A DNA stretch of 45,675 bases from Candidatus Bathyarchaeota archaeon (GCA_020344435.1 CP070826.1:1021024-1066698), one strand, 5' to 3'; numbered from the stretch's first letter, positions 5,773 through 39,770 are shown. The notes: a model not told the origin generated them from the sequence alone. A program made the numbers and translations.

Positions 5773-5798
5773 CTTTCTGCATACATGCATGCAGAAAG
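5773..5798. terminator. perfect 10-bp inverted repeat between convergent genes
   Basis: The arms are ctttctgcat (5773-5782) and atgcagaaag (5789-5798), separated by the loop acatgc. The element lies between the carS stop (5717) and the stop of the minus-strand membrane gene (5828). Confidence 0.35.
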
Positions 5799-5827
5799 CT
5801 TTCTGTCGGCTAATACTCCTTCTACGC

Positions 5828-6247
5828 TCAACGGGCAAGCAGCAGAAATTCAATTAGGACATATGCCACAAAGACGAAAGTACAGCCAATCAATAGTAAC
5901 ATGAATGCCTGTCGAGGTTTATACGCGTATCTTGTGCTCTCGTACGTCATGAGTAAACCTACAACAGCTATTGCGTATATGATCATTGCAAACATGCTTT
6001 CAGCCACAAATTGCTCGTTGATCCCATAGGGATAGTAGAAGATGATCCTACCCCCAGCAGCAAAGGCCGCAACGAGAGGTTTTTCTAGGAGATCGTAGAG
6101 TCCGCCTCCTAGAAAGAAGATGGAGGCTGCGACCGCTACAATAGCTATGAGGAAAATGGAGGGCTTTGCCGTAATAATTTTCCAGTATAGCTTTTGAATG
6201 TAGTAGATTATAGAAGAGAATCTTCTCGTTAGACCAGTCATGATCAT
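5828..6247 (-). CDS. hypothetical integral membrane protein (about 4 TM)
   Basis: The protein has four hydrophobic segments. Its ATG overlaps the stop of the upstream 71-aa ORF (ATGA at 6244-6247). Confidence 0.55.
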   Translation of the reverse strand: MIMTGLTRRFSSIIYYIQKLYWKIITAKPSIFLIAIVAVAASIFFLGGGLYDLLEKPLVAAFAAGGRIIFYYPYGINEQFVAESMFAMIIYAIAVVGLLMTYESTRYAYKPRQAFMLLLIGCTFVFVAYVLIEFLLLAR

Positions 6248-8839: not shown

Positions 8840-9982
8840 TTGTTGTTGAGTCGGTCAGCAAAGAGAACACACCTCTATGAGATTCACAACAAAGAAGCAA
8901 ACATGGCCTTATTCGCTGGATTCGAGATGCCAATGTGGTTTAAGGGCATCATTTCAGAGCACATGGCTGTGCGAAACACCGTCGGCATCTTCGACATCAC
9001 CCACATGGGGCGAACCGTTGTTACCGGCCCAGAAGCCGAAGCCTTCCTCAATTATGTGACAACTAACGACGTTTCATCACTAGCGCCGCTTTCCGCGCAC
9101 TACTCAGCGATGTGTAATAGACAAGGGGGAATAAAAGATGACTTCGTCCTGTCCAGATTAGAATCAGAGGAATTCCTCATCGTTTATAACGCAGCCAACA
9201 GAGAGAAAGACTATGAATGGTTGCTGAAGCAATCCAAGGAGTATGATGCTGAAGTTGAAGACGTTTCAGACAGCGTTTCCATGTTCGCAGTGCAGGGACC
9301 AAAGGCTGAAGATACATTACATAGAATATCCGAGGAAGACCTGAGCAGAATCAAGCGTTTCAAGTGTGGCTGGATGAAGATCGCTGGATTCAGATGCTTC
9401 ATCTCGAGAACGGGATATACTGGTGAGGATGGGTTTGAGCTTCTTGTATGGAACACTTCTACCTCCAGTCCAGACAAAGCGGTGAAGGTGTGGAATACCA
9501 TCTTAAAGGCTGGTCGAGAGGAGGCCATTGAGCCTTGCGGTCTCGGCGCTAGGGACACGCTGAGACTGGAGGCTGGCATGTGTCTTTATGATAATGACAT
9601 CGATGAAGGAACCTCTCCGTTAGAAGCGAGACTGAGTTTCGCTGTCAAACTCGAGAAGGGCGACTTCATAGGTAGAGATGCCCTACTTAGGCAGAAAGAG
9701 GAGGGCGTAGAAAGGAAGCGTGTTGGAATCCATATGCTGAAGAGCGGGATTCCAAGGCCTGATTGTGAAGTCTGGAAGAATGGTGAGAAGATAGGGCGTG
9801 TGACCAGCGGAACCTTCTCTCCTGTACTCAAATGTGGAATAGCCATGGCATATGTTTCTACAGAGCATGTAAAGACAGGCGAAACGGTTGCGATTAAGAT
9901 AAGAGATAAACTTGTAGATGGAGAGATCGTTAAGTTTCCTTTCTACGATCCTACAGAGTATGGCTACAAAAGAAAAATATGA
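8840..9982 (+). CDS. gcvT: aminomethyltransferase (glycine cleavage system T protein)
   Basis: KRTHLYEIH...FAGFEMPMWF...EHMAVRNTVGIFDITHMG, together with GYTGEDGFEL and ARDTLRLEAGMCLYDND, are canonical GcvT motifs. Confidence 0.92.
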   Translation: MLLSRSAKRTHLYEIHNKEANMALFAGFEMPMWFKGIISEHMAVRNTVGIFDITHMGRTVVTGPEAEAFLNYVTTNDVSSLAPLSAHYSAMCNRQGGIKDDFVLSRLESEEFLIVYNAANREKDYEWLLKQSKEYDAEVEDVSDSVSMFAVQGPKAEDTLHRISEEDLSRIKRFKCGWMKIAGFRCFISRTGYTGEDGFELLVWNTSTSSPDKAVKVWNTILKAGREEAIEPCGLGARDTLRLEAGMCLYDNDIDEGTSPLEARLSFAVKLEKGDFIGRDALLRQKEEGVERKRVGIHMLKSGIPRPDCEVWKNGEKIGRVTSGTFSPVLKCGIAMAYVSTEHVKTGETVAIKIRDKLVDGEIVKFPFYDPTEYGYKRKI

Positions 9983-15535: not shown

Positions 15536-15549
15536 CGATTTCTCAATAG
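15536..15549. repeat. 14-nt direct repeat CGATTTCTCAATAG, copy 2 (spans the GT2 stop codon)
   Basis: This is an exact match to 15413-15426, 123 bp away. Confidence 0.7.
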
Positions 15550-16886
15550 GAGAAATCTCCAAAATGTTCCGTTTTGCTTTCTTTCCACGTCTTTATCTTG
15601 GGAATATACCATAGGGCAATAAGCCAATGATACATAAATAACAAGAACAATGGGAAAAGCAACACGCCTTTAAAACCTCTTTCTAAAACAATACGCAAAA
15701 ACGTAATAATCACCTGAAATAACCAGAGCCAAAACCAGAATGGAAAATAGAATGTGTAAAATGTTCCTCCCAGCAGATATAAGAAGGTTAAGATTAACCC
15801 ATAATAGAACAGAAACACACCAAAATGGCTCACTAGAAGATGCCAAATCCGGGGCTCCGTCCAGCTTCTAGCTAGGTGCTTTCTGAGAATCTGAAAATTG
15901 CCTCTTAGCCATCTTGCCCTTTGTTTGAAGAAGGAAGTCCACGTGACAGGTCTTTCGTCATAAACTCTGACATTGGATGCGAAACCTATCCGAAAGCCTT
16001 TCCTGAGCAATCTTAGGGTTAAGTCATAGTCTTCAACAAGATTTTTCTCGTCCCAATAGCCAGTTTCTTCTAGAGCGAAACGTTTTACTGCTTGTCCAGT
16101 GCCACCAAGCAAAGCGAAGAGTCCGAATCTGCTCAGAGAGTTTTCTACGAGATCAGTGAAAGCCAGCCATTCCAAATCCACTAGTCCTGAAAGAAGATTG
16201 CTATTGCTGTTTGAACTTACAATACGCGCTTGGACTGCGTCATATTTCTGGAAATAAGGAACAAGATTCTCCAGGAACCTCTTGTCAATCCTTGCATCAG
16301 CGTCAAAGATGACCACGATTTCACCTTCTGTGTGTCGGATCCCATGGTTTAGTGCTACTGGTTTGCCGTAGTCTCCCCTGAATTCTAGCACTCTTACTCT
16401 CTTGTCAGCAGTGGCTTTTGCAACTTCATATGTTCTGTCTGAACAATTATGGGCAACAACAACTGCTTCCCAAGCAGCATACGTTTGCTTTGACAAATCA
16501 CTCAAAAGATTGCTGATGACTTTCTCTTCGTCTCGAGCGGGAATAAGAATTGAAACCATTGGTGCATGCGGGTTGAACATCTTAAACTTCTCTGGTTTCC
16601 TGAAAGAAAACAGAAATCCGGTCAAAATGTAAAAGATCCACCCTAGACTTATGTATAATCCAATATAGGCAGGCAAATAACTCAGAATCGTTAGATCTAA
16701 ACGTATGAATGATAAGATAAGCACAAGGGGTTTTGCTTCTCCAAATGTCAGATAGAATATGAGAAAACTGACTAGAAACCAGGTGAGACCAAACAAATAA
16801 TCTTTAACAGTTCTCACGCCGAGTCTCGCGATTATGTTCTTGCCTCTGTCCTTGCGGCGAGTCGCATAAATTCGCTTCGATTTCAC
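15543..16886 (-). CDS. family-2 glycosyltransferase, membrane-embedded processive type
   Basis: VSILIPARDEEKVI, VVIFDADARID (DxD) and QRARWLRGNFQ (QxxRW) are flanked by multiple TM helices at both ends. Confidence 0.85.
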   Translation of the reverse strand: MKSKRIYATRRKDRGKNIIARLGVRTVKDYLFGLTWFLVSFLIFYLTFGEAKPLVLILSFIRLDLTILSYLPAYIGLYISLGWIFYILTGFLFSFRKPEKFKMFNPHAPMVSILIPARDEEKVISNLLSDLSKQTYAAWEAVVVAHNCSDRTYEVAKATADKRVRVLEFRGDYGKPVALNHGIRHTEGEIVVIFDADARIDKRFLENLVPYFQKYDAVQARIVSSNSNSNLLSGLVDLEWLAFTDLVENSLSRFGLFALLGGTGQAVKRFALEETGYWDEKNLVEDYDLTLRLLRKGFRIGFASNVRVYDERPVTWTSFFKQRARWLRGNFQILRKHLARSWTEPRIWHLLVSHFGVFLFYYGLILTFLYLLGGTFYTFYFPFWFWLWLFQVIITFLRIVLERGFKGVLLFPLFLLFMYHWLIALWYIPKIKTWKESKTEHFGDFSY

Positions 16887-17038: not shown

Positions 17039-18085
17039 CTAAGCGAAAATAGAGTCATTTTGCTTGTCTCTTGAATTACCATGTACAGCTTTCCAGGCTC
17101 TGGCTCTCCTCCATAGGATTCGCCCTCCAGTTATTTTTAGTGGGTAGGACAGAATCCACGCGACAGAATACAACCAGCCATAGTAATTATGAAAGGCCCA
17201 AACATCACCACCACTCATTGAAATCACGAATATAGCAACGACTCTGAAGATGTTGATAACATAGGTAATGGCAGCACCAACTACGAAATAGACTATTCTA
17301 TGCCTCCATGGAAAGGAAGTCCGCTTCATGAATAGTAGAATCGTAACCGTGTAGATTACAAGGCTTTCGACGCCCGCGCATGGCCAAGCTATTCCAAAAC
17401 TGGCAAATTCTGATGGTTTTTCTGAGTTCCAGACGCTCAAATGAGGCATAGAGCCATATTCGGGGTGTTCTGTAGAATATAGATGCGTTTGGTATCCCAT
17501 AAGATTCAGAACATTTGCTGCAAGCGTAGCAGTTGCAGGAACAAGAATTTGAAAAGGCGTGAACCATCCATATGGATACAGATCATCTATTGTAAATATC
17601 ACTCCGATGGCTACCAAGAAGAATAGAGGAATCGAGAAATCTACAAATCTATTTTTACCATGGGTCAGCAGAATTATTGAGGCAAAGAGAAAGGCGAAAA
17701 TGAGGTATTCTGTTGCAAGGGGCAATAGGTGTGCTAATGGAACGTTGTTTTGCATGGCGGCTTCCATGATTGTTATGTTCAGTCCGCAATAGTTGGCGGC
17801 AAATACGTATACCGTGGGAAGTAGAAGAGAGATAATTAAGGAGATGGTTCTTACTGGTTTCAGTGTACCCGTCTGTGCTTTTCGAGTTCTTTCCCAGGTC
17901 AGTATTGCTTCTAGCGTAACAAGCCATAAGAAGAAGAGCTGAAGTGTTCTGCCTTGGTACGTTGTTTGGAAGGATTCAGGATGTAAAAAATGTAGTACGA
18001 GAATTGGTGGAACGAATGAGAGGATGGGTAGAAGCGCTTCTAGGATGCTGATGTTTTCCTTAATTTTCTGTGCAATGTCTAGCAT
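17039..18085 (-). CDS. archaeosortase/exosortase-family transpeptidase
   Basis: The protein is polytopic. It carries FGIAWPCAGVESLVIY (catalytic Cys), YVINIFRVVAIFV (conserved Arg) and AFHNYYGW (His). I start it at the ATG at 18085 (MLDIAQKIK). The 73-aa extension in the track is basic, low-complexity and overlaps the priL fragment. Confidence 0.7.
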   Translation of the reverse strand: MLDIAQKIKENISILEALLPILSFVPPILVLHFLHPESFQTTYQGRTLQLFFLWLVTLEAILTWERTRKAQTGTLKPVRTISLIISLLLPTVYVFAANYCGLNITIMEAAMQNNVPLAHLLPLATEYLIFAFLFASIILLTHGKNRFVDFSIPLFFLVAIGVIFTIDDLYPYGWFTPFQILVPATATLAANVLNLMGYQTHLYSTEHPEYGSMPHLSVWNSEKPSEFASFGIAWPCAGVESLVIYTVTILLFMKRTSFPWRHRIVYFVVGAAITYVINIFRVVAIFVISMSGGDVWAFHNYYGWLYSVAWILSYPLKITGGRILWRRARAWKAVHGNSRDKQNDSIFA

Positions 18086-18233
18086 CGAGATTTTCTCGTT
18101 AGTGTGCGCGCGCGTCCGCGTGGATCGTGTAAACTTGCTGAGTTTCTGGGGAAGTCTGTGAAGTGGAGGGTGAAGGCGTATACTTGGGTGCCTTTTTTGG
18201 TGCGTTGAATCTTCCAGTTGAAGTTTCCTGCTA

Positions 18234-18587
18234 TTACCAATGATATTTCCTTCTGTCTTCATTCCTAAGTAGTTCATACGCGCGTTCTGCTTCAGCCAGG
18301 GCATATCTTCGTTTTAGGTAGGAATCAATTGTTGCAGCGGTCATCACGATGGCTATTGGAAAGGAGGATACTTCGATTTCGTCTTTTTCGTGCCGCTGGG
18401 TTATTGATCCGAAGAGTATGGCTTCTTCTATTCTTTCTTGGGCTTTTTCTAGGATATCTTGGTATTCTGTGTTTGTTAGATCTTTGAGGTTAATTTCCAG
18501 TCCTTGGATGTAGTTTGCAGCTTGGGAAGTAAAGGGATATCTAGCAAGGTTGTAGGGTGTGAGGACTGGGTTTGCCTCCGTCTTCAT
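18234..18587 (-). CDS. priL: DNA primase large subunit PriL, N-terminal fragment only (117 aa)
   Basis: ARYPFTSQAANYI...LKDL...AQERIEEAI...SFPIAIVMTAATIDSYLKRRYALAEAERAYELLRNED parallels the N-terminal helices of Sulfolobus PriL. It ends in TAA-TAG. No Fe-S C-terminal domain follows in any frame. The start overlaps the PCNA stop (ATGA). Confidence 0.6.
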   Translation of the reverse strand: MKTEANPVLTPYNLARYPFTSQAANYIQGLEINLKDLTNTEYQDILEKAQERIEEAILFGSITQRHEKDEIEVSSFPIAIVMTAATIDSYLKRRYALAEAERAYELLRNEDRRKYHW

Positions 18588-19405: not shown

Positions 19406-20089
19406 ATGGATGCATTTTTCTATCTTTTTCCATATAGTATATGCGAGCGAAGCGGGTCTGTGACAGTGCTGAGAAAGAATCCGAGCGTTGTTTATTGGCT
19501 TGGTGATAAGCTGTACCTAAACATAACCAACCGGTGCTCTAATGATTGTTATTTCTGTCTAAGACGATTCAAAGATGGTGTTAGGGGTTTCAACCTGAAG
19601 CTGCGGGGGGAACCTTCTTCCAAGGAGGTGGTTGCGGAGTTGCAGAAGGGTATTAGGAGAAAGCTTTGGAAGGAGGTTGTTTTCTGTGGATTCGGAGAGC
19701 CCTTGATGAGGCTAGATTGTATTCTGGAGGTCACGAGTTGGGTGAAGAGGTTTCATGAGAAGGTTGTTAGAGTGGATACTAATGGGCATGGGTTCCTGCT
19801 GAATGCGGGGAGGGATGTGGTAAGGGAGTTGAGGGAGGCCCATGTGGATAGAGTGAGTGTTAGCTTGAACGCCCAGGATGAGGAGACCTACAATAGAGTG
19901 TGCAGACCAAAGTTTCAAGGGGCTTTTGAGAAGATTTTTGAATTTGTAGAGAAGGCTAAGGAGGTGGGTTTGGAGATTGAGATTACTGTCGTAAGGATTC
20001 CGGAGGTGGATGTGCGAGAAGTGAGGGAGATAGCGAAGAGGAGGGAGGTTGAGTTTAGAGTGAGAGAGTATATACCTTGCATCTGGTAG
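19406..20089 (+). CDS. radical SAM protein (small TatD-associated type)
   Basis: LYLNITNRCSNDCYFCLRR carries the CxxxCxxC motif. VVFCGFGEPLMRLD and VRVDTNGHG are also present. The track start at 19148 lies antisense inside PCNA. I use the ATG at 19406; a later start is possible. Confidence 0.72.
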   Translation: MDAFFYLFPYSICERSGSVTVLRKNPSVVYWLGDKLYLNITNRCSNDCYFCLRRFKDGVRGFNLKLRGEPSSKEVVAELQKGIRRKLWKEVVFCGFGEPLMRLDCILEVTSWVKRFHEKVVRVDTNGHGFLLNAGRDVVRELREAHVDRVSVSLNAQDEETYNRVCRPKFQGAFEKIFEFVEKAKEVGLEIEITVVRIPEVDVREVREIAKRREVEFRVREYIPCIW

Positions 20090-20213
20090 GATTCAGAGTT
20101 TCTATGTTCTTATCAGGGTCCGTATCAATTGAACTCCTTGCACACCGGTGTTGTGTGGAAGACCTTGAATGATAGTTAAGCAAATCTCGTATGCATATAC
20201 CCCGACTTCTGTG

Positions 20214-20445
20214 TCATACCAAGCGACCGGAATGACGACGGACCGCGCGCGTCGGGATCGGTACAGCTGCAAGCGTGCAGGCGCTAGATACGCCCGTGGG
20301 AAAGATCCTGTAGAAATTTGTGAACTCATCTTCTGCTTTTTTTGAAATGCTTGAACTTAACTCCCAGGGAGGGGATCTTCTTGTGTCGCTCGTAGCGTTT
20401 CTTGATGAATTGAAGGATTGTCTCCTTGAGCTCAGGGTTCTCCAT
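20214..20445 (-). pseudogene. possible frameshifted small gene (39-aa ORF 20326-20445 plus an out-of-frame 40-aa continuation)
   Basis: The ATG at 20445 gives MENPELKETILQFIKKRYERHKKIPSLGVKFKHFKKSRR*. A 7-nt homopolymer (T7 on plus, 20337-20343) lies just before the stop. One base fewer would continue ...FKKAEDEFTNFYRIFPTGVSSACTLAAVPIPTRAVRRHSGRLV*. I recognise no family. Confidence 0.25.
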
Positions 20446-20491
20446 TGTATCCGCGCCAATATAATGTTGATCCGCACACAAACATTCAATG

Positions 20492-20590
20492 ACGTTCTGC
20501 GACGATCTCTCACGATCTCTCCACGATTTCCCACCGATTCAACATTCAAAACGACGATTTCGCACGATTTCCACGATTTCGACGATCTTC
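20492..20590. repeat. array of 8-9 phased direct repeats with core (C)ACGAT(T/C)T(C)
   Basis: ACGAT starts at 20502, 20512, 20523, 20554, 20564, 20573 and 20582. A CCGAT variant starts at 20534 and an ACGTT variant at 20492. Spacings are 10, 11, 11, 20, 10, 9 and 9 bp. The copies form two blocks of four around aacattcaaa. Confidence 0.8.
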
Positions 20591-20849
20591 ACCTGCCAAG
20601 AGCGTAGGGACGAGAATCCTGTGTTGTCGGTGTGGATCGCGAAAATGATGTTGAAATGCCGGTCTTCCCCCTCTACCTCCTAGACGGGCTTCAGCAGTGC
20701 CAGTCTCGGCCTACGGAAACCAGATCGTGACTGCGCGAAATATGCTCGCAAATTGAAAAGGGTGGAAATATCGACTCTTTTCGCTGGATTCCGACCGTAT
20801 GATGCTAAAGCGCAATCCTTTTAGTTGCAATCTGACGATTATAGTCGAG

Positions 20850-21746: not shown

Positions 21747-21754
21747 TTTTAAAT
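21747..21754 (+). promoter_or_regulatory. TATA-like box TTTTAAAT for the 21.8-29.3 kb operon
   Basis: It lies in an AT-rich divergent intergenic region, about 70 nt upstream of the ATG at 21823. Confidence 0.4.
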
Positions 21755-21777
21755 CTTGACAGAGAAATTCAACAATA

Positions 21778-21794
21778 GGTTGACAAGGGTTGAC
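21778..21794 (+). promoter_or_regulatory. GGTTGAC direct repeat with 10-bp spacing (GGTTGACAAGGGTTGAC), operator-like
   Basis: The repeat lies between the TATA-like box and the first ATG of the operon. A third TTGACA sits at 21756-21761. The 9-mer GTTGACAAG is shared with 10276-10284. Confidence 0.4.
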
Positions 21795-21822
21795 CCCACC
21801 TAGAACACCATCGAAATCAAAG

Positions 21823-23643
21823 ATGAAGCCAGAAGAAATAAAGGTGATTCTAGCCACTGATTGCGGAAGCACCACCAGCAAAGCCCGTTTCTTCAAGAAA
21901 CTAGGAAATGAATATCGCTTTGTTGCGAGTGGAGAAGCCCCCACAACCGTCGAGGCTCCCTTCGAAGACGTAACGCTAGGCGTACGCAACGAGATACTAG
22001 AAGTAGAGGAACTTACTGGACACAAGATTCTAGCTCCGCACGGAATTATGACACCTTCCAAGGGCGAAAAGGAAGGCGTGGACTTGTATGTTACCACAAG
22101 CAGTGCTGGTGGAGGGCTCCAGATGATGGTTGCAGGAGTGGTAAAGACAATGACTGCTGAAAGTGCGGAACGAGCAGCCTTAGGCGCAGGAGCCATAGTT
22201 ATGGATGTTATGGCCGTGGACGATGGTCGGCGACCTTATCAAAAGATCGGAAGGATACGGTATCTCAGACCTGACATGATTTTGATGGCGGGTGGGACAG
22301 ATGGCGGAAACGTGACTCACGTCGTTGAGACCGCCGAGCTGATTGATGCCGCGAAGCCAAGGCCACGGCTGGGCATAGATTTTGAGCTACCTATCGTCTT
22401 TGCCGGAAACAAGGAAGCTCGTGTCCCCATAGAGAAGATTCTGGATAAGGCATATGCTTTGAAGATTGTGGACAACCTACGACCGGTCCTTGAGTTCGAG
22501 AACACCGGTCCAGCCAGAAACGTGATTCACGAATTATTCATGGAACACGTGATGTCCCATGCGCCTGGATATGACAAATTGATGAAGTGGACACCAATCC
22601 CGATAATGCCGACTCCTGCTGGCGAAGGAAGAATGTTTCAGGCAATCGCCAAAACCTACAGCGCAAACGTCATTGGCGTCGGCTTAGGCGGAGCGACTAC
22701 TAATGTATATTCAATGTATGAAGACAAGTTTGTAAGAACCGTGAGTGCCAACTTGGGCATGAGCTATAGTATATGCAATGTTCTGAAGGAAGCTGGAACA
22801 AAGAATATAGTGCGTTGGGTACCATTTGAATGCTTGGAGGAAGATCTCCGTAATCGCCTGTACAACAAGATGATTCGCCCTACAACGATCCCGCAGACTG
22901 TAGAAGACTTAGTAGTTGAACATGCCGTGGCAAGAGAAGCATTACGCTTGGGCTTTGAACATCACAAGCTACTTGCTAGACCGCTGCGCGGCGTGCAAAG
23001 AAGGCGCACTATAGCAGATATTTTTGAACAGGAAGCCTTTGAAGAGACCTATATTGACATGTTGTATATCGATTGGGTGGCTGGTACAGGTGGTCTTCTA
23101 TCTCACGCTCCGAGGCGGGCGCAGTCGGCTCTGATGCTGATTGATGGTTTCCAACCTGAGGGCGTGACTAGCTTGGCGCAGGACAGCGTCTTCATGATGC
23201 CTCATCTCGGGGTTCTATCCACTGTACATCCAAAGGCCTCCATGGAGATATTCGAAAAGGACTGCCTTGTTAGGATCGGAGTCTGCATCGCCCCACGAGG
23301 AGTGGGAAAGGAAGGAGAAGTTATGGAAGTTGCAATCCGCATGCCTGACAATTCATGTTTGGAGGAACAAGTAAGCTTTGGATCGATAAAGAAGATTCCT
23401 CTCAAGGAAGGAGAGAAGGCTGAAGTAGAGATACTCCCGTTTCGTGGAGGCGATGTCGGGCAAGGTTCAGGAAAGGCAAGAAAAGTTGTCATCGAGGGTG
23501 GAGTCGTTGGAATAATCTTGGATGCGCGAGGGAGACCTCTGGTTCTGCCTGATGAGGATAATGAAAGGAAGCAGAAGCTGATTGAATGGTTCAAAGCCCT
23601 TGATGCATATCCCGAGAGATTGTATGAAATGTGCGGCAGGTAA
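21823..23643 (+). CDS. MutL/GlmL-family ASKHA (actin-fold) ATPase, long form
   Basis: ILATDCGSTTSKARFF is the phosphate-1 motif, DMILMAGGTDGGN is phosphate-2 and IGVGLGGATTNVYS is the adenosine motif. This order and spacing match the glutamate-mutase accessory protein MutL family. The protein is about 606 aa and has an extra C-terminal region. The start is the ATG at 21823. Confidence 0.7.
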   Translation: MKPEEIKVILATDCGSTTSKARFFKKLGNEYRFVASGEAPTTVEAPFEDVTLGVRNEILEVEELTGHKILAPHGIMTPSKGEKEGVDLYVTTSSAGGGLQMMVAGVVKTMTAESAERAALGAGAIVMDVMAVDDGRRPYQKIGRIRYLRPDMILMAGGTDGGNVTHVVETAELIDAAKPRPRLGIDFELPIVFAGNKEARVPIEKILDKAYALKIVDNLRPVLEFENTGPARNVIHELFMEHVMSHAPGYDKLMKWTPIPIMPTPAGEGRMFQAIAKTYSANVIGVGLGGATTNVYSMYEDKFVRTVSANLGMSYSICNVLKEAGTKNIVRWVPFECLEEDLRNRLYNKMIRPTTIPQTVEDLVVEHAVAREALRLGFEHHKLLARPLRGVQRRRTIADIFEQEAFEETYIDMLYIDWVAGTGGLLSHAPRRAQSALMLIDGFQPEGVTSLAQDSVFMMPHLGVLSTVHPKASMEIFEKDCLVRIGVCIAPRGVGKEGEVMEVAIRMPDNSCLEEQVSFGSIKKIPLKEGEKAEVEILPFRGGDVGQGSGKARKVVIEGGVVGIILDARGRPLVLPDEDNERKQKLIEWFKALDAYPERLYEMCGR

Positions 23644-23649
23644 TCACAT

Positions 23650-24792
23650 TTGTCATCACAAGCCTACACGCCTGGATTAAAGAGAAAAGCTGCAACGATA
23701 GTGCGGAAGACAAGAATGCTGCCGATTCAAGGAGATGTCTTGGTTAAGAAAGGGGACGTGGTCGAAGCCGACACGATAGTTGCGAGGACTTTCATTCTAG
23801 GTGATGTTCAGGTAGTGAATGTTGCTGGACTGCTAGGAATAGATTTGTGGGAAACATCACAGTACATGCTCAGGAAGGAAGGAGAAGAAGTCGAGAAAGA
23901 GGAGCCTATGGCGATGATTAAGAGTTTTTTTGGGCTCTTCAAAAGGTACGCATTTGCTCCAGTTTCAGGAACTGTCGAGCGCATATCCGACATCACGGGA
24001 CAAGTAATTATTCGAGAATCGCGAGTTCCGCTGGAGGTTGACGCATACATCCAAGGCAAAGCAGTCGAAACATTGCCAAATGAGGGAGCAATCATCGAAA
24101 CCCCTGCTGCTTTCATACAGGGAATCTTCGGTGTAGGCGGCGAGAAGAAGGGAAGATTGATGATTCGCACTGGTAGCCCGAGCGAAGCCCTGACCGCTAG
24201 AGAGATTGAATCTGAATGTAATGGAAGAATCTTGGTTGGAGGGGCGCTGGTTACGAATGATGCTATACAAAAAGCAATCAAAGTAGGCGCCAAGGGAATC
24301 GTGGTTGGAGGAATAGACGATGATGACCTCACCAGCTTCCTAGGCTACAAGATTGGAGTTGCGATCACTGGACAAGAGGACATTCCGTTAACCCTTATCA
24401 TAACTGAGGGATTCGGTGAAATGGCGATGTCAGAAAAGACCTTTTCCCTGCTGAAGGAATTCGACGGGAGACATGCCTCGATCAACGGCGCAACCCAGAT
24501 ACGGGCTGGGGTTATGCGACCTGAGATCGTTATTCCAAGACCTGAACTCGCGAAAAAGAAACGCGGTGATCTTGAAGACAAAGGGGAATTCCTTGAGAAA
24601 GGACTATTGCCCGGCACGCCAATAAGGATCATCAGAGAACCATACTTCGGAGCGCTAGGTGTCGTCTCCAAACTCCCTGTACCTCTGAAGACGGTAGAGT
24701 CCGAGTCGGATGTGCGAGTTCTTGAAGCCGAACTCGACGATGGAAGACGAGTCATCGTACCCCGAGCCAATGTAGAAATGATAGAAGAATGA
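23650..24792 (+). CDS. hypothetical protein with an N-terminal barrel-sandwich-hybrid-like domain
   Basis: LPIQGDVLVKKGDVVEADTIVAR ... FAPVSGTVERISDITGQVIIRE resembles the two half-hairpins of lipoyl/RnfC-N-type barrel-sandwich hybrids. A Gly-rich alpha/beta region follows (ILVGGALVTNDAIQKAIKVGAKGIVVGGIDDDD). The start is TTG, 6 nt after the upstream stop. Confidence 0.6.
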   Translation: MSSQAYTPGLKRKAATIVRKTRMLPIQGDVLVKKGDVVEADTIVARTFILGDVQVVNVAGLLGIDLWETSQYMLRKEGEEVEKEEPMAMIKSFFGLFKRYAFAPVSGTVERISDITGQVIIRESRVPLEVDAYIQGKAVETLPNEGAIIETPAAFIQGIFGVGGEKKGRLMIRTGSPSEALTAREIESECNGRILVGGALVTNDAIQKAIKVGAKGIVVGGIDDDDLTSFLGYKIGVAITGQEDIPLTLIITEGFGEMAMSEKTFSLLKEFDGRHASINGATQIRAGVMRPEIVIPRPELAKKKRGDLEDKGEFLEKGLLPGTPIRIIREPYFGALGVVSKLPVPLKTVESESDVRVLEAELDDGRRVIVPRANVEMIEE

Positions 24793-25802
24793 AGCAGATT
24801 CGACAATGGGGCAGATTCTTGCTGTTTCATAAAAGACCGAAGAATGTTGCTAGTCTGTTAAGAGAATCATTATCCAAGGAAATGCTTGATGAACCTCTCC
24901 TACTCGATCATGTGAAAATCGAAGACTATCTGATGGTGGCTCTAGAGATTCGCCCCTGTTCTCTTCTCACGATCCCGGCTGAATTTCACAACGGGACTGA
25001 GTTGGGAAGAAGGATAGATGAGCTCTGCGCAGAAGACTTGCAAGCGGTTCTGAGAGCAACGACCGACAAGAAAGGAGCTCTAATCCGCAGGTTGAAGAAG
25101 AAGATCCGAGAAGCTCTCAAGAGAGTTGTCTTTACATCAGCCACATATGAGGCGCATATGAACTGGTCGAGAAAACTTGATCTCCGAACATTTGATGTTG
25201 AAGTGAGACCAAGCATTCATGAGTTATACCTGTTCAAAGACTCGAAGATCAAGAGCGAATTAAGAAGTCTTATGAGGATCAGAACAGCAACAAGAGAGAG
25301 AGTTCGGCTCAGGATGGATGCTTCCAAGAGAAGGACTCGTTTGGCTTTTGCCGAGGAATCATCCCCAGAATATCTAGTTTCTGTTGGCAAGTTGCTTGGG
25401 TATCCTTCTTGCTGTGTTGAACGGTATGTTCATGAACGGTTGAATGAAGGTGCAAGCGTTGAGGCTCGAGCCAGTGGGCAAGTCGAACAGTCGAGAAAGG
25501 ATGGGGAAGAACCTGATGTTTATGCTTATTTTGTCCGAAACTTCTTTCCGTGCAGGCCAACATGCGAGAATGCCAGTGAGATTGGGAGAAAGACCTTTGA
25601 TCTTTTAAGTAGTCTAGATCCGAAACTTGGAGGCCTCTACGGCAGATGTATGACGAATAATGTTGAAATGGTTGAAGAATGTCCTGGACTCACTAAACGG
25701 TACAGAGCGAAATTGACAAAAAAAGCGCAAAGACTTACTAGAACTCAGAGTGATGACCAAAACAATTTTAAACGATACGCGTCAATAAATTGGGATTGCT
25801 GA
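24789..25802 (+). CDS. DUF483-like Cys-motif protein
   Basis: KLLGYPSCCVERY ... FFPCRPTCENA (CC...C...C) resembles the archaeal DUF483 family. The start overlaps the upstream stop (ATGA at 24789-24792). Confidence 0.55.
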   Translation: MKQIRQWGRFLLFHKRPKNVASLLRESLSKEMLDEPLLLDHVKIEDYLMVALEIRPCSLLTIPAEFHNGTELGRRIDELCAEDLQAVLRATTDKKGALIRRLKKKIREALKRVVFTSATYEAHMNWSRKLDLRTFDVEVRPSIHELYLFKDSKIKSELRSLMRIRTATRERVRLRMDASKRRTRLAFAEESSPEYLVSVGKLLGYPSCCVERYVHERLNEGASVEARASGQVEQSRKDGEEPDVYAYFVRNFFPCRPTCENASEIGRKTFDLLSSLDPKLGGLYGRCMTNNVEMVEECPGLTKRYRAKLTKKAQRLTRTQSDDQNNFKRYASINWDC

Positions 25803-25839
25803 GCGTGCTGAAACTTCAGTATAGCCAAGTGGTGGATAA

Positions 25840-26166
25840 ATGTATCATTACGCCACTGAACTATCATCGGAGAGGGCAGAGTACCTAATTGAGAAACTAG
25901 CGAAGTGGATAGTGAATCACCGTCTTGAAACTCCAGCGATCATGTTCTTGGAATCAATGAAGCCTCTATCCTTCATCGGCAGTCAGATGTGGCTAATGTA
26001 CGGTGTACCTATGCTTGGAATAGTAATGGATGAACATCAGACCTCGGAGTTTGGACTGCTCTTCGAGAACAGAGGAAACGTTGAAGCTCTGATCCAAAAG
26101 ATAGAAAAGCTGGCACGCGAAGCAGATGAGAAAAGAAAGAAAGAAAAAGAGGAAAAGGAAAAATGA
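25840..26166 (+). CDS. small protein with a central hydrophobic hairpin and a K/E-rich tail
   Basis: The protein is 108 aa. It contains PAIMFLESMKPLSFIGSQMWLMYGVPMLGIVM and ends in EADEKRKKEKEEKEK. The start is 37 nt after the upstream stop, and GGTGG precedes the ATG. Confidence 0.6.
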   Translation: MYHYATELSSERAEYLIEKLAKWIVNHRLETPAIMFLESMKPLSFIGSQMWLMYGVPMLGIVMDEHQTSEFGLLFENRGNVEALIQKIEKLAREADEKRKKEKEEKEK

Positions 26167-26948
26167 ATTTCATCAACGAGGGCTTAGTTGCTTCATTCGC
26201 AATGTTGGTCATCGTCTTAGCTGAGATTCTCATAGCACTCTTCATAGCAAGGGGCGGTACACACGTTCCCAAAATCCGCAAAATAGCTGGTCTGGAAGCC
26301 ATCGAAGAAGCTGTTGGGCGCGCCACTGAAATGGGGCGACCAATCACGTATACTACAGGGCTTGGCGGCATCAGAGACCAATATTACTATCAGACAGTTG
26401 CTGGACTGAACATCTTAGGCCATACCGCAGAGCTGGCAGCGAAGTACGGTGCAAAACTTCTCTACTTCCCATATGACCCAACCATAATGCCGATGGCACA
26501 CGAGGTTATGGAGCAAGGCTACATCCGCGCTGGCAAACAGGAAGCATTCAATCCAGAAAACATCATATATCTTGGAGGCGACCAGTTTCCATGGGCTTTC
26601 GGGGTTCTAGGCACAACATACAGAGAACAGAGCGCTGCAAACATCCACATGGGACCATTCTGGGCGGAATCGCTGATACTAGCCGAAGCAGGGTTTTACA
26701 CGGGTGCAATCCAAGTTATGGGCACAGCAAACTATCACCAAATCCACTTCTTCGTGGTTGCTTCTGACTATGCTTTGATCGGTGAAGAATTGATGGCGGC
26801 CGGTGCCTACTTGTCCAAGGACCCGACTCAAATCGGTTCATTGTGGGGCGCGGACTTCTCCAAGCTCACTGCGATAGCGATAATGCTTATCGGTGTGATC
26901 CTGACCGCTGCTAACGTCACTGCGCTGAACGACTTCCTAGCGTTATAG
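26163..26948 (+). CDS. hypothetical bitopic membrane protein (N- and C-terminal TM helices flanking a soluble domain of about 190 aa)
   Basis: The N-terminal helix is LVASFAMLVIVLAEILIALFIA and the C-terminal helix is LTAIAIMLIGVILTAANV. The start overlaps the upstream stop (ATGA). I recognise no family. Confidence 0.65.
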   Translation: MNFINEGLVASFAMLVIVLAEILIALFIARGGTHVPKIRKIAGLEAIEEAVGRATEMGRPITYTTGLGGIRDQYYYQTVAGLNILGHTAELAAKYGAKLLYFPYDPTIMPMAHEVMEQGYIRAGKQEAFNPENIIYLGGDQFPWAFGVLGTTYREQSAANIHMGPFWAESLILAEAGFYTGAIQVMGTANYHQIHFFVVASDYALIGEELMAAGAYLSKDPTQIGSLWGADFSKLTAIAIMLIGVILTAANVTALNDFLAL

Positions 26949-26960
26949 GAGGAATGACAC

Positions 26961-27623
26961 ATGAGTTTAGTTGTTAAGAGGTACATTCCCCTTGCAATCA
27001 CCTTCATAATGGGCTTCATCATGGTGATAGCCACCTACTTCCTAGCCCCAGGGACTCCCGCCAGGGACGCCACGGCCTTGCTAACAGCAACAGTGGACGT
27101 TCTGGTGGTAACTGCAGGTGCAATTGGCCTCGTCGCGCTACTCAGGCATCATTTAATGAACATCAACAAGAGAGGGCGATTCTGGCAATACAGCACGATC
27201 ACAATCATCGCGGTCATCATATACTTGATTATTGGACTCTATGGAGTCGCAACGCATGAGCAAAGATACATGTACGCAAGTGAACTCTTCAGCTGGGTCT
27301 ACAGCAACATATACGTCCACATGGACATGACGATATTCTCGTTGCTAGCGTTCTTCATCGCATCAGCTGCCTACAGAGCCTTCAGACTAAGAAGCTTGGA
27401 AGCATCCGTCCTGCTGATCGTCGGCTCACTAATGCTTCTGGGCAGAGCACCCATTGGAGGAGTAATTTGGGAGGGCTTCCCAGCAATCGCTGAGTGGCTT
27501 CTAACAGTTCCCAACGCGGCAGGAAACCGAGCAATAACCATCGGCATCGCAATCGGAGCTATTTCACTGGCGATAAGACAATTGCTAGGCGTTGAGAGAG
27601 GATATCTAGGTCCTGAACGTTAA
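26961..27623 (+). CDS. hypothetical polytopic membrane protein (about 6 TM)
   Basis: GGAGG precedes the ATG and the gap to the upstream gene is 12 nt. Hydrophobic helices run through the whole protein. Confidence 0.65.
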   Translation: MSLVVKRYIPLAITFIMGFIMVIATYFLAPGTPARDATALLTATVDVLVVTAGAIGLVALLRHHLMNINKRGRFWQYSTITIIAVIIYLIIGLYGVATHEQRYMYASELFSWVYSNIYVHMDMTIFSLLAFFIASAAYRAFRLRSLEASVLLIVGSLMLLGRAPIGGVIWEGFPAIAEWLLTVPNAAGNRAITIGIAIGAISLAIRQLLGVERGYLGPER

Positions 27624-27638
27624 GGAGAATTGACAGAA

Positions 27639-28535
27639 ATGCCTACAGAAGAAAAAACTCCATTCGATCGACGCTACATTTACATTGTGCTGTTCGTTTT
27701 GATCAGCATTCCACTATTGTATCCTCTCAATTTGCCAATACCGATAAGTCCCATGAGTCAGGATGTATGGGATGCAACCGTAGCACTATCCCCTGGAGAT
27801 ATAGTAGTTCATTCATTTGACTTCGGTCCATCAACTCTTCCAGAGAATGAACCCCAATGCTCGTCTCACCTCTTCCATTGCAGAGAACTCGGACTAAGAG
27901 TCGTTGCTGTGGCCTTCTGGGCTGCGGGTGGCCCACTCGCCCATGACATAATATCAGAGATCTATGGCGAAGGCTATGAGAATACCGCAGCGTATGGTAC
28001 AGAAATAGTATACATTGGTTACATTCCAGGAGCTGAAGTTGGCATGCAAACATTTGGGGACAGCACCTGGGACGCGAAGGGCACCGACCATTACGGCACA
28101 TCACTACCAGACTTGGCGCTGATGCAAGAGGTAAGAAGCGTAGCAGATGTCACTCTTTGGGCAGAATGGACATCGGGAACTCCAGGTGAACAACAGGTGA
28201 TACAGTTCATACAAGGTCGCCATCAAGGGGAAAATACAGATTGGCCGTTGGTAAGGGGGGAGCATCTCCTGCCAATTGTTGCAGGTTCGACAGCAGTCAG
28301 CGTACCTGGGATGATGCCCTTCTACTCTGCTGGTCAACTCGTCGGAATACTGAACGGACTAGCTGGCGCGGGCGAATACGAGAAGTTGGTTAACGATGTT
28401 TATCCCCAGTATCCCTATGAACAAGGACCAGGACTAGATGCCCAATCAGTAGCCCATATACTTGTCATACTCTTTGTTGTCATTGGAAACATCACTTGGG
28501 CAATCAGCAAATCTGGAGGAGGCAAGAGCTCGTGA
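27639..28535 (+). CDS. hypothetical bitopic membrane protein (N- and C-terminal TM helices, central domain of about 240 aa)
   Basis: AGGAG lies 11 nt before the ATG at 27639; the track start is TTG at 27630. The N-terminal helix is YIYIVLFVLISIPLLY and the C-terminal helix is VAHILVILFVVIGNITWAI. Confidence 0.65.
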   Translation: MPTEEKTPFDRRYIYIVLFVLISIPLLYPLNLPIPISPMSQDVWDATVALSPGDIVVHSFDFGPSTLPENEPQCSSHLFHCRELGLRVVAVAFWAAGGPLAHDIISEIYGEGYENTAAYGTEIVYIGYIPGAEVGMQTFGDSTWDAKGTDHYGTSLPDLALMQEVRSVADVTLWAEWTSGTPGEQQVIQFIQGRHQGENTDWPLVRGEHLLPIVAGSTAVSVPGMMPFYSAGQLVGILNGLAGAGEYEKLVNDVYPQYPYEQGPGLDAQSVAHILVILFVVIGNITWAISKSGGGKSS

Positions 28536-29278
28536 TTCCACCTAACATAGGTCAACTACCGCCTGAATTAGACCTCTTCGCAGCAATCTTCGGAGTCTTC
28601 GCAACTATATTCATATACAGCTTCCTATGGAAAGAAAACCCGCTATCTCGTGCAGTGGAACACCTATTCGTCGGCTTGGCTGCCGTCTTCACTTTGGCAT
28701 TCATGTATGACGCTGCTCTATCTCAAGCAGTCTGGGGAACCAACAGACTCGCAGAAGGCAACTTCATATGGATTATTCCAATACTGCTCAGCCTGATGTA
28801 TTTCTTCTTCTTCTCGAAGAAATACTTCTTCCTGTACCGATATCCAGTGTCAATAGTCGCTGGCGTCATGGCAGGCATGATGATATGCGGCATGATCCAA
28901 AGCAACTTCCTAGCTCAGATACAGGCCACTGTTGAACTGCCACTCGTCGGAGCTGGCGTGTGGGAAGGATGGCCTCCAGCAGGCCTCAACAGCATCATAA
29001 TGATCATCGGCATCATAACAGCATTGACTTTCTTCTTCTTCACTTGGGAGCACACAGGCGCTTTGGGCATTAGCACAAGGATAGGACGATACTTCCTTAT
29101 GGCCACCTTCGGATCCGCCTACGGTGGCACAGTAATGGCTAGAATGTCACTGTTCATCGGAAGACTGAGATTTCTCTATGAAACAAGCTATCAAGACTGG
29201 TTCTGGGCTTGGTATCTCGTGCCAATAGCCGCAATCATTGTGATTCTCGTAGCCCTCTGGGATAGATCCAAAGGATAA
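28532..29278 (+). CDS. hypothetical polytopic membrane protein (about 7 TM)
   Basis: The GTG at 28532 overlaps the upstream TGA (GTGA) and is preceded by GGAGGAGG. The track start at 28496 would give a 40-nt overlap. Confidence 0.65.
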   Translation: MIPPNIGQLPPELDLFAAIFGVFATIFIYSFLWKENPLSRAVEHLFVGLAAVFTLAFMYDAALSQAVWGTNRLAEGNFIWIIPILLSLMYFFFFSKKYFFLYRYPVSIVAGVMAGMMICGMIQSNFLAQIQATVELPLVGAGVWEGWPPAGLNSIIMIIGIITALTFFFFTWEHTGALGISTRIGRYFLMATFGSAYGGTVMARMSLFIGRLRFLYETSYQDWFWAWYLVPIAAIIVILVALWDRSKG

Positions 29279-29291
29279 CCCTTCCTCCCCC

Positions 29292-29297
29292 TTTTTT
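29292..29297 (+). terminator. oligo-T tract after the last gene of the operon
   Basis: ccccCTTTTTTATTTcc begins 13 nt after the stop at 29278, consistent with an archaeal oligo-T terminator. Confidence 0.4.
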
Positions 29298-38118: not shown

Positions 38119-38273
38119 AGGGCGTACTCCTTGTGATAGTATTGCGCGTGTAGGGGTTTAAACTGTACGCACATGCGAATCTAGGTCCAACTCTCCGCCT
38201 ATTTTATGACCCAGATGGGTATGCACACATAAATTCAAGGAGAAGAATCTACTAAAGATGACAGGTGGCTGAA

Positions 38274-39770
38274 ATGAAGAAGGTTGCTTTGGCCTGTTTG
38301 TTGTTTTTCTTTCTGCTATCCTCAAAACTCCTGTTAACACTATCCTATGACGTTCAACAAGTCAGCGCGGAGGCTAGGACTTGGACTGTGGATGATGATG
38401 GTCCAGCAGACTACCACACAATACAAGGAGCTGTAGATGCGGCAGAAGAAGGGGACACCATCTTCGTATACAATGGAACGTACTATGAGACTGTCTTTGT
38501 AGAGAAGTCTCTTTCGCTGGTTGGAGAACACAGAAGCGGAACCATAATTGATGGTGAGCGAACAGGGACAGTTGTACATGCCAACAATACGAGTGTGGTA
38601 ATAACAGGGTTCACAATAAGAAACAGCAGTGATTACCCTCATACTGGCATTAGCCTAAAAGACTCGCGTAACAGCAATGTAACTGACAATATGATCTTCA
38701 ACTGTACAGAGGGCATACGAATGTACAATTCAACAGACACCATTGTAGAACACAATACGATAGCCGCTAATTATGGCGGCATTCATCTGGCTGGCAACTC
38801 GCACATCAACCTCATCACGCACAATGTCATAGACTCCAATTCGTGGGGGATCTATCTGGACAATTCATCTGACAACCTCCTCAGGGGGAACTCCTTGACA
38901 AACAACTCGTGGACAGCTATCGACTTATTCCAGTCTGAATGTGAGAATAACATTCTATCTGGTAACATCATTGCTAACAACGGTAATGGAGTGCGCTCCT
39001 ATAACGGAGCAAGTGGAAACACAATACGAGACAACGTCATAATGTACAACAATGATACAGACGGCGGGAAGGGAAATGGCATCTCCCTAAGCGGGCATTC
39101 AAGGAGCCATACTGTGACTGGGAATACCATTATAGGGAACCGTTATGGGATTCATCTATTTATATCAGAAGATAACACGCTCTACCACAACAACTTCATC
39201 AACAATACAAAACATGCGCACCAAGCCACTGGCAGCTACTCAAATTCCTGGGACAACGGTTTTGAGGGGAATTACTGGAGCAACTATACTGGTGTGGATT
39301 CGGATCATGATGGAATAGGCGATAGTCAGTACGAAATCGACGAAAACAATACAGACCTTTATCCTTTGATGGGCACGTTCTATCATTTCAACGCAGACTC
39401 CGAATATCCCGTTCAGACTATATGCAATTCGACAATAACCGATTATGGATTCAATGGTTCTGCCATCAGTTTCGATGTCACCGGGAAGAATGGCACCGCC
39501 GGCTTCTGTAGGATTCGCATTCCAACAGCCCTGCTGAATGACACATATCGAGTATTTGTGAATGGCACAGAAGTACCACACACTCTGCTGCCACCTTCAA
39601 ACAGCACACACGTCTACCTTCACTTCAACTATCTTCACTCAACACAAGAAGTAACAATAGTACCAGAGTTTCCATCATTTCTCATTCTACCACTATTCAT
39701 AATGGCAACGCTTCTAGCAATATTACTCTATAAAACAACAAAATGCCGAACAATACAAAACAAACAGTAG
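38274..39770 (+). CDS. secreted parallel beta-helix (NosD/PbH1-repeat) surface protein with a PEF-CTERM sorting signal
   Basis: The signal peptide is MKKVALACLLFFFLLSSKLLL. There are about 10 repeats of the type N.I..N..GI.L..S..N (ITGFTIRNSS, NVTDNMIFNCTEGIRM, NTIAANYGGIHL and so on) and many N-x-S/T sequons. The C-terminus is VTIVPEFPSFLILPLFIMATLLAILLYKTTKCR: PEF, then a TM helix, then a basic tail. Confidence 0.8.
   Translation: MKKVALACLLFFFLLSSKLLLTLSYDVQQVSAEARTWTVDDDGPADYHTIQGAVDAAEEGDTIFVYNGTYYETVFVEKSLSLVGEHRSGTIIDGERTGTVVHANNTSVVITGFTIRNSSDYPHTGISLKDSRNSNVTDNMIFNCTEGIRMYNSTDTIVEHNTIAANYGGIHLAGNSHINLITHNVIDSNSWGIYLDNSSDNLLRGNSLTNNSWTAIDLFQSECENNILSGNIIANNGNGVRSYNGASGNTIRDNVIMYNNDTDGGKGNGISLSGHSRSHTVTGNTIIGNRYGIHLFISEDNTLYHNNFINNTKHAHQATGSYSNSWDNGFEGNYWSNYTGVDSDHDGIGDSQYEIDENNTDLYPLMGTFYHFNADSEYPVQTICNSTITDYGFNGSAISFDVTGKNGTAGFCRIRIPTALLNDTYRVFVNGTEVPHTLLPPSNSTHVYLHFNYLHSTQEVTIVPEFPSFLILPLFIMATLLAILLYKTTKCRTIQNKQ

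Follow-up and report, generated by a model that had tools for sequence, protein, structure and literature searches.

The subject of this study is a group of eight adjacent genes in a stretch of DNA of 45,675 nucleotides (nt), hereafter the window, from a metagenome-assembled genome of a Candidatus Bathyarchaeota archaeon (GCA_020344435.1, CP070826.1:1021024-1066698). The eight open reading frames (ORFs), referred to as g1 to g8, were read from the sequence; all are on the plus strand, between positions 21790 and 29278. The locus is one copy of a conserved two-module system, in which one module, M, consists of g5 to g8 and the other, C, of g4, g1 and g2. That is, four membrane proteins unlike anything characterized occur together with an actin-fold complex, and no function has been assigned to them anywhere.

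Gene organization of the locus

The first gene, g1 (21790-23643), encodes a MutL/GlmL-type protein of the actin fold (ASKHA), and g2 (23650-24792) encodes its predicted cytoplasmic partner. These are followed by g3 (24789-25802), for a DUF483-family protein with four cysteines (Cys4), by g4 (25840-26166), for a putative small adaptor, and by g5 (26163-26948), for a DUF6754 protein. The last three genes are g6 (26961-27623) and g8 (28532-29278), whose products have six predicted transmembrane (TM) helices each and belong to no known family, and between them g7 (27630-28535), for a bitopic protein. A first-pass annotation of this DNA had placed eight plus-strand genes between a TATA-like box and an oligo-T tract, and the ORFs and both signals can be read in the sequence. 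The TATA-like box, TTTTAAAT (21747-21754, plus strand), is a putative promoter within a 70-nt AT-rich divergent intergenic region. The oligo-T tract (T6; 29292-29297, plus strand) begins 14 nt past the stop codon of g8 and is a candidate archaeal terminator. A scan for sigma-70 promoters and intrinsic terminators, with a model unsuited to an archaeon, gave no enrichment over shuffled sequences, and no RNA gene was found in searches with Rfam and for tRNAs. The GC content of the cluster is that of the rest of the window, which is uniform.

The genes are closely packed, and all junctions are as that annotation had described them. The stop codon of g1 (TAA, 23641-23643) is separated by 6 nt from the TTG start codon of g2 at 23650. 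The genes g2 and g3 overlap in ATGA (24789-24792), as do g4 and g5 (26163-26166), and g7 and g8 overlap in GTGA (28532-28535), with GGAGGAGG just before. The gap of 12 nt between g5 and g6 (TAG-GAGG...ATG) contains GGAGG. Between g6 and g7 lies TAAGGAGAATTGACAGAAATG, with AGGAG; this gap measures 15 nt to ATG 27639, the probable start of g7, or 6 nt to TTG 27630. The longest gap, 37 nt (25803-25839), separates g3 from g4 and carries GGTGG 5 nt ahead of ATG 25840. In the 12-, 15- and 37-nt gaps, a Shine-Dalgarno-like motif stands just ahead of the start codon. Translational coupling throughout had been proposed; true overlaps exist at three junctions only. The 37-nt gap had also been said to lack a TATA-like element, and the only candidate there is a weak one, GTATAG, 16-20 nt ahead of ATG 25840.

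Conservation of the gene cluster in two domains of life

A search with DUF6754, the family of g5, returned more than 7,000 protein clusters, and a search with g2 at least 8,000 matches. When g5 was used to scan one genome per GTDB species, it was found in at least 581 species, from which 80 loci were taken; with four more from a look-up of the exact proteins, 84 loci were mapped with the eight window proteins. The four genes of M follow one another in the fixed order g5, g6, g7, g8, and this series is complete in 68 of the 84 loci, most of the others being incomplete contigs. Eight loci have two or three tandem copies of M, and in two of the loci (L005 and L008) a single g1-g2 pair accompanies two or three tandem membrane modules. 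Similarly, g2 stands directly after g1 in 38 of 40 copies of g1, and g4 directly before g1 in 19 places. In 36 loci the sequence extends for 8 kb or more on either side, and 22 of these have g1 and g2. The order and relative side of M and C vary between loci, and in two archaeal loci without MutL (L085 and L086) g4 directly precedes g5.

The carriers include Bacillota (Alkalicella, Anaerobranca, Symbiobacterium), Cloacimonadota, Planctomycetota, Zixibacteria, Ignavibacteria, Eisenbacteria, WOR-3, Armatimonadota, Myxococcota, Bathyarchaeia and Methanomethylicia, among others; cultured ones are Alkalicella caledoniensis, Anaerobranca gottschalkii, Symbiobacterium thermophilum and Planctomicrobium piriforme. 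In all, a set of seven genes out of the eight is found again in 15 or more bacterial phyla and in archaea. It is because of this synteny across domains, and not of the spacing alone, that we regard the unit as more than a chance association; conserved neighborhood was the check proposed in the first-pass annotation, and the genes are co-localized in dozens of unrelated genomes. The proposed unit of eight genes stands as a conserved core of seven, with g3 outside the universal core. No copy of g5 was found in plasmid and phage collections.

In comparison with their counterparts in Alkalicella (Bacillota), the window proteins g1, g2 and g5 show sequence identities of 59%, 51% and 53%, respectively, and g6 to g8 of 31-38%; the cytoplasmic parts are thus the most constrained. 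Gene transfer between bacteria and archaea is likely.

Two variations of the gene set were observed. A small protein of about 150-170 residues, which we call c8, is encoded in 19 bacterial loci (e.g. L015, 5786-6307, and L006, 9336-9845), just upstream of g4-g1-g2 or of g5. It has two hydrophobic helices and a C-terminal domain and belongs to no Pfam family, and it is present neither in the window nor in the archaeal loci. Many loci have two MutL-g2 pairs, among them five from Bacillota (L006, L007, L018, L025, L080) and the archaeal L083. In the second pair of the Bacillota, g1' has DVGSTT for DCGSTT and g2' has an insertion; in L083, two pairs and two membrane modules are arranged in divergent orientation.

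An orphan MutL-type protein

The product of g1 matches the complete Pfam profile MutL (PF13941, positions 1-450 of 450) with an E-value of 1e-115 and 387.5 bits. Its scores with the NCBIfam models for GlmL, Or-4 and glmL_fam are all below the cut-offs: 196.9 bits for NF040745 (cut-off 475), 197.6 for NF040744 (600) and 147.2 for TIGR01319 (204). Homologues align from residue ~13, and the true start is therefore probably ATG 21823. No gene for a subunit of a B12-dependent mutase (glmS/glmE, ornithine aminomutase genes) was found in the window or among the recurrent neighbors in 82 related loci, which makes g1 an orphan MutL-type protein. The earlier reading of g1 as an orphan MutL-type protein is thus upheld by the Pfam match, the scores below the GlmL and Or-4 cut-offs and the lack of a mutase nearby.

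Like the GlmL/MutL of B12 glutamate mutase, g1 aligns with the whole MutL profile and keeps the motifs DxGSTTxK (DCGSTTSK in the window) and GGTDGG. It differs from it in its scores (147-198 bits against cut-offs of 204-600), in an additional beta-rich C-terminal extension of about 125 residues, and in its genetic context, since it adjoins g2 almost always and mutase subunits never, and is often fused to g2, g4, TM anchors or helix-turn-helix (HTH) domains. It differs further in that an archaeal clade of g1 lacks both aspartates of the motif DxGGATTD. In other ASKHA proteins, the motif DxGGxxxD bears on ATP hydrolysis. In the bacterial g1 orthologues this site reads GVDIGGATTD, invariantly in 28 of 28, whereas in the window (22669-22698, residues 294-303) it reads GVGLGGATTN. 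The latter form, with both aspartates lost, is common to the window, L003 and both copies in L083, all of them archaeal. Of the best 150 representatives of g1 clusters, 110 have a motif that could be located, and 107 of these keep both aspartates. The losses point to a regulatory or structural role for module C in this copy, rather than a strongly hydrolytic one.

The partners of g1 and natural fusions

A structural model of g2 was computed with AlphaFold2 (AF2) from 24 sequences, with a predicted local distance difference test score (pLDDT) of 83. In this model, residues 12-172 form a barrel-sandwich half rich in beta strands, residues from about 180 to 300 a Rossmann-like alpha/beta domain, and the C-terminus a small barrel of the KOW/SH3 type. 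A barrel-sandwich-like N-terminus had been proposed for g2, and this agrees with the Pfam matches in its family: Biotin_lipoyl was found in 17 and RnfC_N in 12 of 24 members (best E-value 9e-6), and NQRA_N was also matched in relatives. In the window protein the match to RnfC_N is weak (E 0.098); the g2-type domain of a fusion protein, P0414, reaches the threshold of NQRA_N (26.0 bits, cut-off 25). NqrA itself docks, as a peripheral subunit, on a complex in the membrane. In a Foldseek comparison of the g2 model with the Protein Data Bank (PDB), NqrA is not among the best 50 matches, and only the C-terminal barrel was matched, to KOW domains of NusG and Spt5; this match was not taken as evidence of function, nor were those of g5 to generic Rossmann-like folds (below). 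A role for g2 as a biotinylated or lipoylated carrier is unlikely, as judged from the model, in which the conserved lysine is placed in a strand and not in the usual hairpin turn.

The N-terminal motif AYTPGLK is nearly invariant in the g2 family, as seen in a multiple alignment (A2), and TTG 23650 is therefore the right start. The public record of the identical protein (P0121, 364 residues) begins 16 codons downstream of this TTG (23650-23697) and omits the motif; the public gene start is thus probably set too short.

The g4 protein had been described as a small membrane hairpin. This description is not supported, because g4 has no TM segment by the Kyte-Doolittle scale and groups with g1 and g2, to the point of a natural g4-g1 fusion. 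According to alignment A8, it consists of an N-terminal helix, a conserved and moderately hydrophobic segment (PAIxFLExxKPLxFIGSQ), a second helix and a tail rich in lysine and glutamate. No match to g4 was found in Pfam, NCBIfam or PADLOC.

With g1 as query, an exhaustive search gave 3,045 cluster representatives at E<=1e-3, of which 735 were at E<=1e-30, and the best 150 were inspected for fusions. Among these 150, 40 are fusions of MutL with g2, of 900-1,190 residues, and the g2 part is complete in P0326 and P0335. P0348 is a fusion of g4 with MutL (E 1.5e-20 with a g4 hidden Markov model). Some MutL variants carry N-terminal TM anchors, in some cases along with an extracellular part, which is Peptidase_M1 in P0331 and consists of TSP3 repeats in P0327. 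That C acts as a single unit is shown by the natural g1-g2 and g4-g1 fusions, and that it can be tethered at the membrane, by the TM-anchored variants.

Other fusions join MutL to DNA-binding domains, namely GntR-type HTH in P0374, and XRE-type HTH_3 together with g2' in P0414 and P0457. These three and P0395, P0420, P0438 and P0456, in all of which MutL, with or without g2', is joined to an HTH domain (GntR or XRE) or a Zn-ribbon, resemble transcription factors. Their domain composition suggests that a paralogous MutL unit can serve as the ligand- or state-sensing part of such factors.

The membrane module

Hydropathy analysis predicts two, six, two and six TM helices for g5, g6, g7 and g8, respectively, and none for g1 to g4. 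Five unclassifiable membrane proteins had been counted in the first-pass annotation. Four are clearly membrane proteins, and g6 to g8 are indeed without a family, but g4 lacks a TM helix, as described above, and g5 belongs to DUF6754 (PF20539; E 8e-83, 278 bits, cut-off 27). Neither g6, g7 nor g8 matched a family in Pfam, NCBIfam or PADLOC, and no Pfam family recurred in 25 homologues of each. Thus, as had been stated before, no transporter, secretion, respiratory or lipid-synthesis family is matched in the membrane half, either in Pfam and NCBIfam or through these homologues.

The AF2 model of g5 (60 sequences, pLDDT 91.7) shows a TM helix, a five-stranded Rossmann-like domain and a second TM helix. 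In a Foldseek comparison with the PDB it matched generic Rossmann-like folds only (RCK, LOG, USP; best E-value 0.011). Lysine plus arginine (K+R) counts are 4.5 after the first TM helix and 0.7 before it, and homologues of g5 have an additional domain at the N-terminus, together with a signal peptide. The charge distribution, with which these homologues agree, places the N-terminus of g5 outside and its Rossmann-like domain in the cytoplasm.

The orientation of g7 is the reverse. Its K+R counts are 2.2 against 1.2 at the first TM helix and 3.5 against 1.4 at the last one, and because of these values at both helices its alpha/beta domain is placed outside the cell membrane. The layout (alignment A3) is thus an N-terminus inside, a TM helix, the external domain, a GLLGGLKGAAEYE motif, a TM helix and a basic tail. 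Conserved acidic and histidine residues are found in the external domain, namely D61, E69, D150, E246-Y-E248 and H273. In g6, alignment A4 reveals the conserved motifs SAAYRAFR and VPNxAGxRA; the g8 protein of the window has an extra C-terminal helix in comparison with its homologues (alignment A5).

There is no invariant cysteine in alignments A1/A6, A2, A3, A4 or A5, and in A1/A6, A3, A4 and A5 there are no invariant Cys/His clusters and no B12-binding DxHxxG motif either. Since the membrane subunits lack conserved cysteine clusters, a redox complex is unlikely. A duplicated, pseudo-symmetric architecture was also considered and rejected, as hhalign comparisons of g5 with g7, of g6 with g8 and of other pairs gave probabilities below 4%.

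A Bathyarchaeota-specific accessory protein

The product of g3 had been read as a DUF483-like protein with a CC...C...C pattern. Consistent with this, it passes the cut-off of PF04467 (31.8 bits, cut-off 25), and GYPxCC...PCxPxC is invariant in 19 homologues. The family has only 84 homologues, all of which match PF04467, and every named one is from Bathyarchaeota. The g2 and g3 proteins of the window are each 100% identical to a protein on record under the name Candidatus Bathyarchaeota. In the more distantly related archaeal loci L085 and L086, g3 adjoins g4 and g5 to g8, with no MutL nearby. Because the family is thus restricted to one lineage, and because g3 is found next to g4 and g5 to g8 even where MutL is missing, its sequence context argues for a genuine, lineage-specific accessory that tracks the membrane module, and not for an insertion.

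Comparison with known systems

Searches of Pfam, NCBIfam and PADLOC with all eight proteins matched only MutL, DUF483 and DUF6754. Profile searches of the PDB with seven of the proteins (g1, g2, g3 and g5 to g8) gave nothing significant and, for g1, no solved relative. No description of the system was found in the literature searched, which was covered in part. The statement that the combination corresponds to no described system therefore agrees with both the literature searched and the family matches. A defense island or mobile element was rejected as an explanation: there is no PADLOC match (noise only, best E-value 0.0039, with no stretch that passes), no plasmid or phage copy, and no deviation in GC content.

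The Rnf and Na+-NQR complexes resemble the system in two respects. Proteins of the g2 type have a putative N-terminal barrel-sandwich domain of the NqrA/RnfC type, with matches that are weak to threshold-level, and after it a domain of Rossmann-like fold and a small barrel of beta strands; and the overall layout is similar, with a soluble subunit, two subunits of about six TM helices, and bitopic subunits of which one has an external and one a cytoplasmic domain. However, g5 to g8 have no Pfam match to the Rnf-Nqr membrane subunits or to FMN_bind, nor do 25 homologues each of g6 to g8; conserved cysteine and flavinylation motifs are missing; and in place of a redox module the partner is a protein of the actin fold. 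An Rnf/Nqr-type redox complex was thus rejected, for want of cysteine or flavin motifs and of family matches.

ECF and ABC importers resemble the system in their modular logic, in that one cytoplasmic nucleotide-binding module can go with several paralogous membrane modules in a locus. Unlike these importers, the system has no P-loop ATPase and no subunit homology to them, and no ABC_tran or permease family was matched at E<=1. Other parallels are by analogy. PilM-PilNO, FtsA and MreB-MreCD/RodZ are actin-fold proteins on membrane platforms, and the ROK regulator Mlc docks on a transporter. As in the former, the gene of an ASKHA-fold protein appears to be linked to those of membrane proteins, both bitopic and polytopic, and the HTH-fused MutL paralogues may recall the ROK repressors. 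There is, however, no sequence relationship with any of these proteins; g1 is of the hydantoinase/GlmL branch, and there is no sign of filaments.

Genomic surroundings and other features of the window

The genes flanking the cluster in the window are housekeeping genes (PCNA, primase, PolB, topoisomerase, gcvT, purine synthesis). No metabolic neighbor conserved across phyla was found, only lineage-limited ones. In Cloacimonadota, these are an acyl-CoA-synthetase-like gene and a lipoprotein gene. In L013, L015, L021, L023, L048 and L069, a complete glycine-cleavage operon (gcvT-H-PA-PB, at about 1300-6000) lies directly upstream of c8-g4-g1-g2 and g5 to g8. Single genes of this pathway were seen at a greater distance in the window (gcvT, 12 kb upstream, 8840-9982) and in L002 (gcvH, 7 kb downstream, 19798-20211). 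The glycine-cleavage neighborhood may be lineage synteny only.

Two adjacent minus-strand genes upstream of PCNA encode a membrane protein similar to exosortases and archaeosortases (17039-18304; match to Exosortase_EpsH, E 5e-10) and a GT2 glycosyltransferase (15543-16886). A NosD/beta-helix protein of the surface type is encoded 9 kb downstream of the cluster (38265-39770), and a NosD/PKD protein immediately 3' of the related cluster in L086 (12178-13821, Bathyarchaeota genome CP070730); this proximity may be a coincidence. A stretch of ~700 nt (20100-20800), with a radical-SAM gene on one side and a GNAT gene on the other, has no convincing long ORF. It contains a unit of 9-10 nt, ACGAT(C/T)TC.., repeated in tandem in two short arrays (20502-20534 and 20554-20586), and a basic ORF of 51 residues on the minus strand (20326-20481), and has no match in Rfam even at E<=1.

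Discussion

Our tentatively favored explanation is that the locus encodes a new complex for solute uptake or translocation, and that the g1-g2 unit is coupled to the cytoplasmic face of this complex or senses it. In such a complex, M would be a hetero-oligomeric integral-membrane assembly of about 16 helices, with the domain of g5 directed to the cytoplasm and that of g7 to the outside, and C a membrane-proximal complex, in which g1 would bind a nucleotide, with g2 as its partner and g4 as a small adaptor. We infer that g7 might bind the substrate outside and that g6 and g8 might form the pathway. C would then dock on g5, at its conserved domain in the cytoplasm, and link transport to the state of g1-g2 with respect to nucleotide or ligand. 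This coupling could take the form of energizing or gating transport, of acting on the substrate as it enters, or of reporting the state of the transporter, the last of which would fit the HTH-fused paralogues. In Bathyarchaeota, the Cys4 protein g3 is a further addition. A more specific version, with a hitherto unknown class of membrane machine that is conserved in many bacterial phyla and in TACK archaea, and in which the actin-fold g1, the NqrA-like barrel-sandwich partner and the small adaptor power or gate a four-subunit transporter or translocase of families without known relatives, and without a P-loop ATPase, is possible but rather doubtful. There are weak hints at an amino-acid or peptide theme, namely the fusion to an M1 peptidase, the upstream glycine-cleavage operon in six loci, and neighboring peptidase genes.

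Several observations weigh against a transport complex of this kind. None of the subunits is similar to a transporter, and nothing points to a substrate. Conserved charged residues are few within the helices of g6 and g8, unlike in many ion-coupled carriers. In many genomes, including all Cloacimonadota loci and the Methanomethylicia locus L002, M occurs without g1-g2 within 10 kb, and therefore C is not obligatory in cis; moreover, the flanking genes are inconsistent across phyla. Finally, by analogy with other ASKHA proteins, the aspartate losses should weaken ATP hydrolysis in this archaeal g1, and hydrolysis by the window protein is doubtful because both aspartates of DxGGATTD are lost. 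The first-pass annotation had tentatively suggested an energy-dependent membrane machine with g1 as its ATP-hydrolyzing protein. In this copy the motif reads GVGLGGATTN, and the HTH-fused paralogues leave room for a role in sensing or regulation instead.

Such a role is at the center of another explanation, in which M is a membrane sensor or receptor, g4-g1-g2 the transducer, and HTH-fused g1'-g2' units carry the signal to transcription. It draws on the fusions of MutL with GntR-HTH (P0374), XRE HTH_3 (P0414, P0457) and Zn-ribbons, on the second g1'-g2' pair beside the canonical one in Bacillota, on the degenerate catalytic motif of the archaeal g1 and on the variable extracellular N-terminal domains of g5 homologues. 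Most g1-g2 pairs, however, have no output domain, no histidine kinase, cyclase or other output family is among the Pfam matches, and a sensor would not typically have four membrane subunits, about 16 helices and two or three copies in tandem; we consider this explanation unlikely. Unlikely, too, and slightly more so, is that the locus holds two independent units with no physical coupling: a membrane transporter that stands alone, and a soluble enzyme, ATP-dependent and of hydantoinase/GlmL lineage, by which the imported compound is metabolized. The frequent occurrence of M without C nearby, the variable order and side of the modules and weak matches to Hydantoinase_A in the MutL domain speak for this. 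The TM-anchored MutL variants speak against it, as does the link of g4 to both modules (through its fusion to g1 and its place before g5 in archaeal loci without MutL), and genes of a catabolic pathway do not recur nearby.

The full-length Pfam MutL match, and the fact that the nearest named relatives of g1, GlmL and Or-4, are accessory proteins, would allow by analogy that g1-g2 is a nucleotide-dependent reactivase or assembly factor, which maintains M as a membrane enzyme or cofactor-bearing complex. One C can also serve several M modules. Against this, no cofactor motif is conserved in M, g1 scores far below the equivalog cut-offs, and the role of GlmL itself rests on annotation, all of which make a maintenance chaperone quite unlikely. 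We give a similarly low probability to a function in envelope or membrane biogenesis, in which a lipid-linked or otherwise hydrophobic substrate, shared by bacteria and archaea, would be translocated or modified by M, with g7 as external catalytic domain and C as the cytoplasmic coupling part. The few conserved charges within the helices of g6 and g8 and the conserved acidic and histidine residues of the g7 domain are compatible with such a substrate, as is the presence of the system in monoderms, diderms and archaea, and on chromosomes only. In the window, the GT2 glycosyltransferase and the exosortase-like protein are neighbors, but they are not conserved elsewhere, and no glycosyltransferase, flippase or lipid-synthesis gene recurs beside the cluster across phyla. 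That the genes are juxtaposed by chance, or belong to an ordinary accessory context of B12 glutamate mutase, is exceedingly improbable: only the Pfam name 'MutL' suggests the latter, no mutase genes were found in the window or the inspected flanks, and chance is refuted by the synteny across loci, in at least 15 phyla and two domains, and by the natural fusions of g1 with g2 and with g4.

We therefore retain a transport or translocation complex with a coupled or sensing cytoplasmic unit as our tentative explanation. If the two modules are indeed one machine, a membrane complex of at least seven subunits would be added to the few that are broadly conserved in prokaryotes, and it would be the first with an actin-fold protein of the GlmL/hydantoinase branch as its cytoplasmic partner. 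Many proteins now labeled 'MutL' or 'glutamate mutase L' are components of this system, with its link to the membrane, and have no connection with B12 mutases. The system is frequent in poorly understood lineages of sediments and digesters, such as Bathyarchaeia, Cloacimonadota, Zixibacteria, WOR-3 and Planctomycetota, and the assignment of a function to it would annotate thousands of genes that are now 'hypothetical'.

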